This document shows positions 624-6,394 of a stretch of 6,394 nt of DNA, one piece after another; position 1 is the stretch's first letter, and each line of letters opens with the position of its first letter. The notes under the pieces were generated by a model that worked only from the letters and a program-made list of their open reading frames with translations, did no database searches and was not told the origin of the DNA. The DNA comes from a virus (Duplodnaviria; Heunggongvirae; Uroviricota; Caudoviricetes): IMG/VR virus record IMGVR_UViG_2778261567_000021. The stretch is one strand, 5' to 3'. Position numbers and translations under genes: made by a program.

Positions 624-849
624 TGTCTACCTTATCTACCTTAGTGGCCCTCATGCCAGTAATGGCGCGGCTTTCAGCGGGGTAGAGTGCTTTTATCCGC
701 TATCTACCCCGTGTCTACCTCCCTGTCTGATTCAGGTAAAATCAGGTAGAGAGGGTAGATAGTGGGTAGACAGTAAAAAAAGGCTATCTACCTAACTTAA
801 TGCACTGAATTAAATGTATCTTTCTTTACTCAGGTAGACAGGGTAGACA
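624..849. repeat. Iteron cluster: about 11 copies of 8-bp T(A/G)TCTACC / GGTAGA(C/T/G)A in both orientations; putative origin of replication
   Basis: Direct copies at 624-631, 633-640, 702-709, 712-719 and 785-792. Inverted copies at 681-687, 745-752, 754-761, 765-772, 833-840 and 842-849. Spacing is often 9-11 bp (one helical turn). A-rich/AT-rich stretches lie at 771-780 and 793-830. The cluster is immediately 3' of the primase/helicase gene. Confidence 0.6.
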
Positions 850-3376: not shown

Positions 3377-3609
3377 AACCCCCCCCCATTTTCACAATCA
3401 GCAATCAGGATAGCTTTGGCCTCATTCAGCGCCATATCAGCACTAAGTTGCATAACCGCCAGCGAATGAGGAACGAAAGCCCCTGCATATTCTGTTTCAC
3501 TGGTGGCGTGCTTATGCGCCCTGTCAGCAATAACAGAAATATCAATAAGCGCGTGCATCAGCGTAGTGAGCGCGGCGGCTGCTGCGTCCGGTGTGGTTTT
3601 ATTGCACAT
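3349..3609 (-). CDS. Hypothetical protein (86 aa); possibly the N-terminal part of a longer protein split at a homopolymer
   Basis: ATG at 3609 with a strong SD (AGGAGG 6 nt upstream, lying inside the preceding ORF). The C-terminus (…ENGGGLCVMIVLIP) is encoded across the G9 run and overlaps the next ORF by 28 nt in another frame. Confidence 0.5.
   Translation of the reverse strand: MCNKTTPDAAAAALTTLMHALIDISVIADRAHKHATSETEYAGAFVPHSLAVMQLSADMALNEAKAILIADCENGGGLCVMIVLIP
3379..3387. repeat. Homopolymeric tract C9 (G9 on the coding strand) at the junction of two ORFs
   Basis: Nine consecutive C at 3379-3387. The minus-strand ORFs 3349..3609 and 3155..3376 differ by one frame across this tract. 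Confidence 0.9.
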
Positions 3610-3805
3610 GGCACACCTCCTGACGAATACGGGCGGCGAATACCATCACGCAGCCAGCCGGGGATTGCAGGCGTGCTTCCTGTTCGCTGGCGGCCTCAAT
3701 GGTAATCACGCGCGGTTGTGCCGTGCTCAGGGCGATAAAACGCCAGATGTATTTATTCAGGTTGTGCGAGTCCCGCCCTTGCGGGTGTGTGGTATGATTT
3801 AACAT
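3599..3805 (-). CDS. Hypothetical protein (68 aa), first gene of the minus-strand operon
   Basis: The ORF track shows a 305-aa ORF 3599..4516, but only the 3' part is credible. The internal ATG at 3805 is preceded by GAGGT 5 nt upstream (minus strand CGAGGTAGCT-ATG). Product MLNHTTHPQGRDSHNLNKYIWRFIALSTAQPRVITIEAASEQEARLQSPAGCVMVFAARIRQEVCHVQ. Its stop overlaps the start of the next ORF by 11 nt. Confidence 0.5.
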   Translation of the reverse strand: MLNHTTHPQGRDSHNLNKYIWRFIALSTAQPRVITIEAASEQEARLQSPAGCVMVFAARIRQEVCHVQ

Positions 3806-3901
3806 AGCTACCTCGATACGCTTTCTATCGTTGGTGGTTAGAAGCCCGGTTAGTGTTAGCGCACTGCCGGGTTTCGTCGTTTCTGCACCTTGCATCAACA
3901 A

Positions 3902-3955
3902 GGTGTTGAACACCAATTTAAGCCCTGGTGTTAAACACGTCAAGTGTTGAACACT
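3902..3955. promoter_or_regulatory. Three palindromic operator-like sites GTGTT-N-AACAC in a divergent promoter region
   Basis: GGTGTTGAACACC (3902-3914, 13-bp palindrome), GTGTTAAACAC (3928-3938) and AGTGTTGAACACT (3943-3955, 13-bp palindrome). An extra AGTGTT half-site lies near 3851-3856. They sit between divergently oriented genes (minus-strand ORF starting at 3805, plus-strand RHH ORF starting at 4005). Confidence 0.55.
3916..3943 (-). promoter_or_regulatory. Candidate sigma70 promoter for the minus-strand replication operon
   Basis: On the minus strand: TTGACG (3943..3938), 16-nt spacer containing operator 2, TTAAAT (3921..3916). It lies back-to-back with the plus-strand promoter. Assigned by eye only. 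Confidence 0.3.
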
Positions 3956-4004: not shown

Positions 4005-4184
4005 ATGGCGACAAAAGCAGTAAACGCAAAATCACAAACAGTTGCGGCAAGGGTTCCGCATGAAGTTATGAACAATGTTGAGGCGGTAAAAATGCCTGGT
4101 GAAAGTACAGGGCAGTTTGTAACAGCAGCATTAAAGCGAGAAGTTGAATACCGCCAGCGTCGCAAGGCCAAAGAGCAGGAATAA
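4005..4184 (+). CDS. Small ribbon-helix-helix (CopG/Arc/MetJ-like) DNA-binding protein, 59 aa
   Basis: Absent from the ORF track, presumably for being under the length cut-off. ATG at 4005 is preceded by AAGGGG at 3991-3996 (8-nt spacing); stop TAA at 4182-4184. Product MATKAVNAKSQTVAARVPHEVMNNVEAVKMPGESTGQFVTAALKREVEYRQRRKAKEQE shows the RHH signature: a beta-strand (AARVPHEV), helix, G-x-S/T turn (GESTGQF), and second helix (VTAALKREV). It lies immediately downstream of the palindromic operators. Confidence 0.55.
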   Translation: MATKAVNAKSQTVAARVPHEVMNNVEAVKMPGESTGQFVTAALKREVEYRQRRKAKEQE

Positions 4185-4526: not shown

Positions 4527-4736
4527 TTACACTGCCTTACCTGAATTAATGCGATCCCGGCTTTTAACCCATTCCATAACCTCGGACAGCAGCCACCCTA
4601 CAGAACGACCGCCCAGATTAAGACGTGACGGAAAGCTCCCTTTTTTCTCCAGTTCGTAGCGTGTAGTGCGACACACTCCAGTTAACTTACGACATTCATC
4701 CTCACGGATTACGCGATCTTCATTTATTTCACGCAT
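4527..4736 (-). CDS. alpA: AlpA-family (Vis/Xis-like) transcriptional regulator / excisionase-type HTH protein, 69 aa
   Basis: The 69-aa product MREINEDRVIREDECRKLTGVCRTTRYELEKKGSFPSRLNLGGRSVGWLLSEVMEWVKSRDRINSGKAV matches the AlpA pattern (…TG.sR.T.Y…P….lG.rsVGW…E…W, about 70 aa). The ORF track extends it to 4823 with a GTG start (98 aa), but the extension is AT-rich and AlpA proteins are about 70 aa, so the ATG at 4736 is preferred. It sits directly downstream of int in the same orientation. Confidence 0.75.
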   Translation of the reverse strand: MREINEDRVIREDECRKLTGVCRTTRYELEKKGSFPSRLNLGGRSVGWLLSEVMEWVKSRDRINSGKAV

Positions 4737-5155
4737 ACAAAAACCTACATAAAAATTACGTATATAAACTTTTCTCTTAGCTGTAGATATATGAGATCGG
4801 ATATTACTTAGATTCTTTTTCACCTCTTAAATTAAAAACACAACCATGCTAAAGGCTTTGTTCGCTAAGGTTCGTAGAAGCTCGTTAGTGTTTAAAATCG
4901 TGTCACGAGTTTTTAAGCGACGCAACAAAAAATGTCGTCATTTGGCATGACACCTTAATTACCTCATTAAAAACAAATAGATAAACTATCAGGTGTTGGA
5001 ACAATCAAGAAACAGAGAATAAGAACTCAGAAGAAGACATTTCAATTTTTTTCGATAGTTGACACATATAAAGAGAAGATATTTGCAGATATTCCCCGAT
5101 ATTCTAAGATCTATTCACGGCTGTAATCTCTTAAAGAAAAAACAGCCGTAATTTG

Positions 5156-6394
5156 TCAAGAATTTTGGGGGTAAATTCGCGGGGTCATAACAACGATTTT
5201 TTCATCATTGTTCTGGAGAAGCTCGAGACGGTCTACCCATAGATTAAGAGCATCACGTTTTGCATCAAGGTAGCGGGAGTGGTTATAGACTCGTTGCATC
5301 CCTGGCATCTGGTGGGCTGTAAGCTGCTCGACAATATGCGGATCCACGCCTAAATCGTTCAGCATGGTTGTAAATGTGTGCCGGATATCGTGTAACGTCC
5401 AGGGGGCTTGATTAATTCGTCTGTGCGCTGTTCTTCCGTACTCTGCTACCGAAGATTGTCCTTTCAGTTCACCAAGCAATAAGCCTGAGTGTCTGTTCTG
5501 CTCCACCAGTTGCGTGACGAACGGCAAAATGCTTTCCGGTATTGGCCTGAATATGGCGACCTTCGTTTTGCTGTGCTCCTTCGGTACTGTCCAGAGCATT
5601 TCTTTAAAATCCCACTCCTGCACCTCAGAGCGCCTTAGCTCAGTGGTACGGCATCCAAAAACAATCAGGAGGCGAATTAGGGCGCTGTAGTATGGCGGGA
5701 ATATTTTGTCATCCAGGGCGCGGAGTAATTCCCCAAGCTCCTTATTTGTTAGTACGCGCTCGCTCACTTCTGCTTTTTTTCCCACATCACCGACAACCAT
5801 ATCATCAAGAACGTTGCTGATTGCGTATCGTCGTTTTCGGCAGTACTTAAGCGCCTGTTTGCATACCTGTAGCAAAAATCCGGCAGATACAGGGCTTCGC
5901 TTTGCCATCTGGTCAAAACATGCCAACCAGTGCCGTAGCTCGCATTTTTCCAACGGCAAAGCGCCAATCTGGCTGATTATGTGTTTATTGATCCGGCTTT
6001 TCAGTGATTCGTAGTCAGTGCGCTTTTCCTTTGCATACGATTCAAGCCAGTAAGTGAGCGCTTCCTTAACTGTCACGGGGGCTAACGCATCCTGTACAGC
6101 ACGATTAAGCTCATAGCGCGGATTTTTCCCCTCAGCCAGCCAGGCGCGACACTGTGCTGCTTTTTCCCTGGCTGCTTTCAGGCTCAGATCGGGATAATTG
6201 CCCAGTCTCAGACGTTCCGGTGATACCTGCCTACCAGTTCCGGCCCTGTAAGTGAAATACCAGGTTAACAGGCCGCTGGTGGAATGTCTTACGCTAAGAT
6301 TGCCACCGTCATTAAAAAAGGCGTTTTTTGTGGTTGGTGATCCGCTTAATTTTCGTAAAAGAGTGTCGCTAAGTCTATGAATTGCGCTGCTCAT
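5156..6394 (-). CDS. int: Tyrosine site-specific integrase, P4 family (412 aa)
   Basis: ORF of 412 aa. The C-terminal catalytic region carries the HxxR box (HDIRHTF) and the tyrosine nucleophile motif (RVYNHSRY). The N-terminal region (GNLSVRHSTSGLLTWYFTYR...) resembles the arm-binding domain of P4/CP4-57-type integrases, recalled from memory. The ATG sits exactly at the window edge, so an upstream extension cannot be excluded. Confidence 0.93.
   Translation of the reverse strand: MSSAIHRLSDTLLRKLSGSPTTKNAFFNDGGNLSVRHSTSGLLTWYFTYRAGTGRQVSPERLRLGNYPDLSLKAAREKAAQCRAWLAEGKNPRYELNRAVQDALAPVTVKEALTYWLESYAKEKRTDYESLKSRINKHIISQIGALPLEKCELRHWLACFDQMAKRSPVSAGFLLQVCKQALKYCRKRRYAISNVLDDMVVGDVGKKAEVSERVLTNKELGELLRALDDKIFPPYYSALIRLLIVFGCRTTELRRSEVQEWDFKEMLWTVPKEHSKTKVAIFRPIPESILPFVTQLVEQNRHSGLLLGELKGQSSVAEYGRTAHRRINQAPWTLHDIRHTFTTMLNDLGVDPHIVEQLTAHQMPGMQRVYNHSRYLDAKRDALNLWVDRLELLQNNDEKIVVMTPRIYPQNS

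Follow-up and report, generated by a model that had tools for sequence, protein, structure and literature searches.

The iteron array immediately 3' of pri-rep very probably serves as replication origin in an E. coli PICI related to EcCICFT073

The repeat array at positions 624-849 of the window, as we call the whole 6,394-bp stretch of DNA analysed here, serves, with high confidence, as origin of replication for a Gram-negative phage-inducible chromosomal island (PICI) belonging to the EcCICFT073 family. We read it in this way because a 94%-identical EcCICFT073 fragment has been tested and because both this fragment and pri-rep are needed for replication of the corresponding plasmid (PMC6092414). 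An origin at this place had been predicted from the sequence of the window, and the prediction is supported not only by the tested fragment but also by repeat positions that are invariant among related islands and by a repeat word that tracks the winged helix of the initiator. As an element it is not new: its kind has been described and tested before, and the window carries essentially the EcCICFT073 origin as it occurs in a sister island. The main value of the analysis is therefore confirmation: a known, tested origin was recovered from raw sequence. As widespread satellites, PICIs disseminate virulence and defence genes, and a PICI's origin and initiator decide which islands replicate and which coexist in one cell.

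The window is E. coli PICI DNA with int, alpA and pri-rep. All its recognisable genes are on the minus strand, in the order int, alpA, icd-like, DUF4222, pri, 92-aa ORF, ssb. These encode a P4-type integrase (5156-6394; Pfam), an AlpA-family regulator (4527-4823; Pfam), an Icd-like cell-division inhibitor (3598-3798), a DUF4222 protein (2615-2914), the last two being among several small ORFs, the Pri-Rep initiator of 584 aa (864-2618; Pfam D5_N, DUF5906 and Pox_D5), a protein of 92 aa (297-575; PHROG 1231), whose gene is the first past the origin, and the N-terminal part of an island-encoded SSB (1-300; Pfam SSB, E 7e-17; NCBIfam ssb). Region 560-900 was found in 507 of 5426 complete E. coli genomes. 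It was always chromosomal, and all 507 matches carry the annotation 'DNA primase family protein' and 'hypothetical protein'. A copy of the array region with 100% identity lies in an island of ~10 kb between tRNA-Pro/yejM and yejO/narP; in NZ_CP027586, region 560-900 is 100% identical but the full length of the window is not. This att site, as yejM-luxR, is among those that PMC6092414 (Table S1) gives for other E. coli PICIs. The copy in CFT073 (NC_004431, 1383959-1384297) is 94.4% identical over 339 bp and lies between ycfD(roxA) and phoQ. It falls inside EcCICFT073, which is given as the prototype Gram-negative PICI (AE014075 1377749-1389210, ycfD-phoQ) in the same report and its Table S1.

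The 584-aa gene and the 92-aa ORF are separated by a gap of 288 bp, of which the array occupies 226 bp. It starts 14 bp past the stop codon (864-866) of the former, i.e. immediately 3' of pri-rep, and ends 48 bp short of the ATG (575) of the latter. The word TRTCTACC has nine exact matches in the 6394-bp window, all of them at 624-849, whereas 0.20 were expected and at most 2 were seen in 200 shuffles of the window. On the plus strand the exact copies start at 624, 633, 701, 712 and 785, and on the minus strand they are at 754-761, 765-772, 833-840 and 842-849. A tenth copy, TCTCTACC, has one mismatch (745-752, minus), and the eleventh, ACTCTACC (681-688, minus), was detected by the core TCTACC alone (core 681-686). 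This core is present 12 times in the window, once elsewhere and otherwise at 626-847 (11/12, versus 1.6 expected). The eleven cores agree with the 'about eleven copies' of the original prediction, and every repeat coordinate given there was correct. The two facing blocks described there are present as well, but with one reversed copy in each (681 and 785). The reversed copy at 681-688 lies inside the block 624-719 that had been called direct, and it was missing from the list. A plus-strand ORF over the array (613-762, 49 aa) was dismissed as an artefact of the repeats. The single-strand DNA fold (z = -4.5) only restates the inverted repeats, and an Rfam scan of the whole window gave no match within the array.

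Fillol-Salom et al. (2018, ISME J, PMC6092414) described the origin as the region immediately 3' of the initiator gene and mapped its iterons. In their report, EcCICFT073 pri-ori on a thermosensitive plasmid gave colonies at the restrictive temperature (Fig 2b), the delta-pri plasmid gave none and the delta-ori plasmid gave significantly fewer, but not none. Dependence of replication on the cognate Pri-Rep was demonstrated there for the CFT073 homologue only (Fig 2b). Mapping of the published primers onto the window revealed that the delta-ori primer ends at the equivalent of position 860 and that the ori construct covers the whole gap and reaches 22 nt into the next ORF. From these positions it follows that the tested fragment is the exact homologue of window ~555-859. 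Primer rep-2c fitted only if a 1-base indel was allowed, which may reflect a transcription error in the supplement. The intergenic regions of the two islands are 94% identical with all 11 iterons in register, their Pri-Rep proteins are about 98% identical, and the order DUF4222, pri, ori, small ORF, ssb is the same. The islands differ in their sites (ycfD-phoQ in EcCICFT073, tRNA-Pro/yejM-narP for the island of the window), in the capsid module, and in a few bases of the spacers and of iteron position 2. The replication test that had been proposed with the prediction has in effect already been done, on 94%-identical sequence.

Read in the direction of pri, with D and I for the two orientations, the core-to-core spacing is D-9-D-46-I-22-D-11-D-9-D, then 31 bp, then I-11-I-22-D-46-I-9-I. 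The second half mirrors the first save for one extra inner copy, so that the array consists of two inverted modules, A at 745-849 (9/46/22/11(/9) bp) and B at 624-719 (11/22/46/9 bp). Module A begins with the pri-proximal pair, iterons 1 and 2 (833-849, minus; TGTCTACC twice, 9 bp apart), which is invariant in an alignment of six islands. It continues with iteron 3 (785-792, plus; TATCTACC), which has the opposite orientation within the module, and with the inner triplet, iterons 4-6 (745-772, minus; TGTCTACC, TATCTACC and TCTCTACC, at spacings of 11 and 9 bp). Module B faces module A with its inner pair, iterons 7 and 8 (701-719, plus; TATCTACC and TGTCTACC, 11 bp apart), followed by iteron 9 (681-688, minus; ACTCTACC with core TCTACC), again of opposite orientation within its module and at a position that is invariant in the six-island alignment, and by the distal pair, iterons 10 and 11 (624-640, plus; TGTCTACC and TATCTACC, 9 bp apart).

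The two 46-bp spacers are of different nature. The spacer of module A contains an AT-rich stretch of 38 bp (793-830, GC 0.24) that is a candidate DNA-unwinding element. Its AT-richness is retained in all relatives and in P4 ori1, whereas the sequence itself is not conserved. AT-rich DNA between the repeats had been predicted in general; this holds for 793-830 but not for 641-680, which is GC-rich and conserved. Here, inside the spacer of module B, lies a non-iteron block of 23 bp, CTGAAAGCCGCGCCATTACTGGC (655-677, minus), which is nearly invariant in the alignment of 6 diverged E. coli PICI origins. The block is also present, once per locus, in the island at locus L013, despite a different iteron and a long P4-type primase. 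Read on the minus strand, it includes the small palindrome GCCA-N4-TGGC. By eye, it matches sigma-70 or sigma-54 sites poorly, and these readings were rejected. The block is common to islands with different iterons and could be a host-factor or priming site. A further invariant sequence, AAAACTTTTTAAACGAGGGGG (587-607, minus), is made up of an A/T tract (598-607) and the ribosome-binding site of the 92-aa ORF (587-593). The tract, AAAACTTTTT, follows the last inverted iteron pair at a distance of 15-20 bp. The E. coli PICIs have a tract at this place in common with the Morganella island and with both crr units of P4 (A8CT6), which points to a cis feature conserved at the margin of these origins.

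The P4 type I iteron that had been given with the prediction, TGTTCACC, agrees with the features annotated in the P4 GenBank record. It differs from the window word T(G/A)TCTACC and, since the word tracks the C-terminal winged helix, the suggestion of an initiator specificity other than that of P4 is supported. The initiators of the two elements are homologous over the helicase (40% identity) and the origin-binding domain (1KA8 match), and the likeness extends to the DNA. In reverse complement, P4 ori1 reads D-10-D-42-I-23-D-11-D-10-D with an AT-rich 42-bp spacer, to be compared with D-9-D-46-I-22-D-11-D-9-D for module A; each module of the window array has the geometry of ori1. The crr unit after the P4 alpha gene reads I-15-D-7-d-11-d-42-I-9-i, and module B resembles it in orientation, in CTGAAA at the start of the long spacer and in a terminal inverted pair that has an A/T tract behind it. 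In P4, however, ori1 and crr are 4.5 kb apart and crr is a tandem 120-bp duplication, whereas the window array is a single cluster of 226 bp in which the modules are adjacent as a mirror pair within 230 bp. A second TRTCTACC cluster was not found in the 18-kb locus covering the whole island. The PICI thus sets side by side what P4 splits into ori1 and crr. In addition, unlike P4, the window array has no type 2 repeats, there is no terminator after the pri gene, and the initiator is without the zinc-binding region of P4 alpha and has a TOPRIM-like domain that lacks the E and DxD.

SaPI origins are described as iterons immediately downstream of rep, in six to twelve copies, with at least two iterons per side in opposite directions and an AT-rich centre, and SaPI Reps as self-loading SF3 helicases that read the iterons by a C-terminal winged helix (PMC9371898). 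Every element of this layout is found in the window array. The sequence relation to the SaPIs is nevertheless distant, their iterons are penta- or hexanucleotides, and host lineage and primase arrangement are different. Origins of the RepA/pi type consist of tandem direct 17-22-bp iterons and adjacent DnaA boxes. A classical iteron-plasmid origin was rejected for the window, where repeats of 8-10 bp occur in either orientation and no DnaA boxes are present in 600-860, even with one mismatch allowed.

A comparison of repeats across related islands, as had been suggested with the prediction, demonstrated that they are conserved relative to the initiator. When the gaps of six E. coli PICIs were aligned (mean column identity 80%), the iteron cores were invariant while most spacer columns varied; the positions stay and the spacers drift. 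More diverse relatives were drawn from distant blastn matches to E. coli genomes; a contig search with Pri-Rep as the one query yielded just 3 loci. In E. coli, Serratia and Morganella, the regions behind homologous initiator genes have the same array layout with other words: CYTCTACC in RM12581 and Br_112, GTATACC at locus L012, ATCCCTAC at L013 with its 813-aa P4-type primase, TGTTCACC at L015 of O157:H7, TGTTCAC in Serratia aquatilis and TGTTCAT in Morganella morganii. The C-terminal ~95 residues of the initiators, i.e. the winged helix, group by iteron class: four proteins of the TGTTCA type, P4 alpha among them, share 43-51% identity with one another and 30-34% with the window protein. 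Grouping by helicase core gives a different result; the Serratia core shares 72% identity with that of the window protein and 57% with that of P4. Between islands with TRTCTACC and with CYTCTACC, only N544A, D545E and G547S differ in the C-terminal ~95 residues. Within a small sample of about seven iteron classes, these sequence comparisons consistently point to the C-terminal domain as the putative reader of the iteron.

Pri-Rep itself has a TOPRIM-like domain (about aa 1-130), D5_N plus an SF3 helicase (aa 154-440) and a predicted winged-helix origin-binding domain (aa 488-579) that matches PDB 1KA8, the origin-binding winged helix of P4 (Yeo et al. 2002, as cited in PMC2777425). Residues 141-579 share 40% identity with aa 324-762 of P4 alpha, and residues 195-432 match 7OLA, the SaPI5 PriRep5 (E 4e-15). 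The position of the 1KA8 match bears on the gel-shift experiment proposed with the prediction, which was directed at an N-terminal DNA-binding domain: this is probably the wrong domain. The gene had also been called a primase. Its helicase part does align to P4 alpha, and the alignment begins there; the label 'primase' did not fare as well. At the motif positions the N-domain has FAGSDAW and RIFRAG instead of the canonical E-G-x-x-D and D-x-D, and without these acidic residues 'primase' is an annotation label for an unproven activity. No Pfam match to aa 1-160 was obtained even at E 10, hhalign of the N-domain with the primase region of the P4-alpha class paired no more than the linker and the beginning of D5_N, leaving out the TOPRIM part, and Pri-Rep has no zinc-binding region, unlike P4 alpha. 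Judged from its residues, the N-domain is probably an inactive TOPRIM remnant. A search for homologues of the N-domain gave mostly truncated proteins from short contigs, and the domain also occurs joined to other helicase types. In some database proteins (P0033, P0036, P0083, P0088) it is fused directly to an SSB domain, which suggests decayed islands from which helicase, origin and small ORF were deleted.

Other functions of the array have to be weighed against that of an origin. The original prediction had included a gating role, in which the initiator bound to the array controls the ssb operon, and in its strongest form this would make the array mainly a transcriptional device, with bound Pri-Rep or another island protein as operator or roadblock for the operon of 92-aa ORF, ssb and capsid genes. 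The array is indeed placed between pri and the following ORF, with 48 bp left to the ATG, the 60 bp that precede this ATG do not vary among islands and, as there is no terminator after pri, transcription must cross the bound array. However, neither a sigma-70-like promoter on the gene strand nor a terminator was found in 250-1000, so that the downstream genes are most simply read through from upstream. The one promoter-like match on the plus strand (835-864) does not exceed what chance would give. It is pri that the array accompanies, whatever gene comes next: relatives have the same architecture after pri with different genes behind it, and P4 ori1 has the same geometry in another gene context, between ORF88 and sid. 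Moreover, the delta-ori defect reported in PMC6092414 is one of replication, in a plasmid without the downstream genes. We consider transcriptional control as the main function very unlikely, and the gating proposal, a roadblock effect of bound Pri-Rep included, found no positive support.

The comparison with P4 raises another alternative, namely that the array is only a cis enhancer of the crr kind and that replication starts elsewhere in the island. In P4, crr is the cluster that comes 3' of alpha; it is a cis element of the enhancer kind and not the initiation site. The distant one is ori1, and the pri-distal module of the window shares with the crr unit the features named above. Yet the pri-proximal module has the geometry of ori1 including the AT-rich spacer, the island locus has no second cluster, and EcCICFT073 pri plus the homologous fragment alone gave replication (PMC6092414). 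This alternative is very unlikely indeed. That the repeats are a packaging (cos/pac) site or arm-type binding sites for integrase or AlpA has hardly any probability at all: short repeated words near genes of mobile elements can be sites for recombinase or terminase, and P4 has arm repeats near int, but the array is 4.3 kb from int and internal to the island, its word covaries with the winged helix of Pri-Rep, and the cos sites of EcCICFT073 were mapped separately by the same authors (PMC6092414).

For the array as replication origin, the following course of events can be envisaged. Upon induction, Pri-Rep would be made, a P4-alpha/D5-type SF3 helicase with a C-terminal winged helix that, judging from homology and geometry, would recognise the 8-10-bp iterons yT(G/A)TCTACCy. 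The eleven sites would be offered as two mirror modules, 745-849 and 624-719, and sites 9-11 bp apart would present themselves on one face of the helix, which would lead to co-operative assembly of Pri-Rep. Again by homology and geometry, the assembly would probably be two oppositely oriented hexamers, head-to-head. D5/E5-type helicases do form head-to-head double hexamers on dsDNA; in the case of mpox E5, attempts to demonstrate that the winged helix takes part in origin binding did not succeed (PMC12137749). The hexamers would then melt the AT-rich stretch at 793-830, the putative melting site, and start bidirectional replication of the excised circle, with primers presumably provided by the host or the helper phage.

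It is tempting to go further and to regard the origin as an exact mirror pair of P4-ori1-type modules, i.e. a compact fusion of ori1 and crr, with two D5-type hexamers head-to-head, specialised 46-bp spacers and an inactivated TOPRIM as N-domain of the initiator. This detailed picture is tentative, and we lean somewhat against it. If it were true, one 46-bp spacer would be the AT-rich melting site and the other would carry the conserved 23-bp element (655-677). An inactivated TOPRIM would also imply that primers need host DnaG or the helper phage. In the literature searched we found no report of the mirror-module geometry, the link to P4 ori1 and crr, the 23-bp block or the degenerate TOPRIM; these may be incremental findings for specialists. 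The comparative results are useful for the annotation of satellite origins and for the design of specificity swaps, and the picture of how the origin functions is unchanged.

Two observations concern the window outside the origin. At 3806-3878 on the plus strand there is a sub-threshold Rfam match to the SymR antitoxin RNA (32.8 bits versus a gathering score of 61) with two hairpins. It is antisense to the leader of the Icd-like gene (3598-3798, minus) and could be an antisense regulator of this gene. Next to it, at 3903-3954, are three palindromic boxes GTGTT(G/A)AACAC, where 0.2 are expected by chance. Located where the icd-like operon and a 59-aa YlcI/YnfO-like ORF (4005-4184, plus) diverge, they overlap a promoter-like site on the minus strand (3943-3915) and look like the operator set for a regulatory switch of the island.
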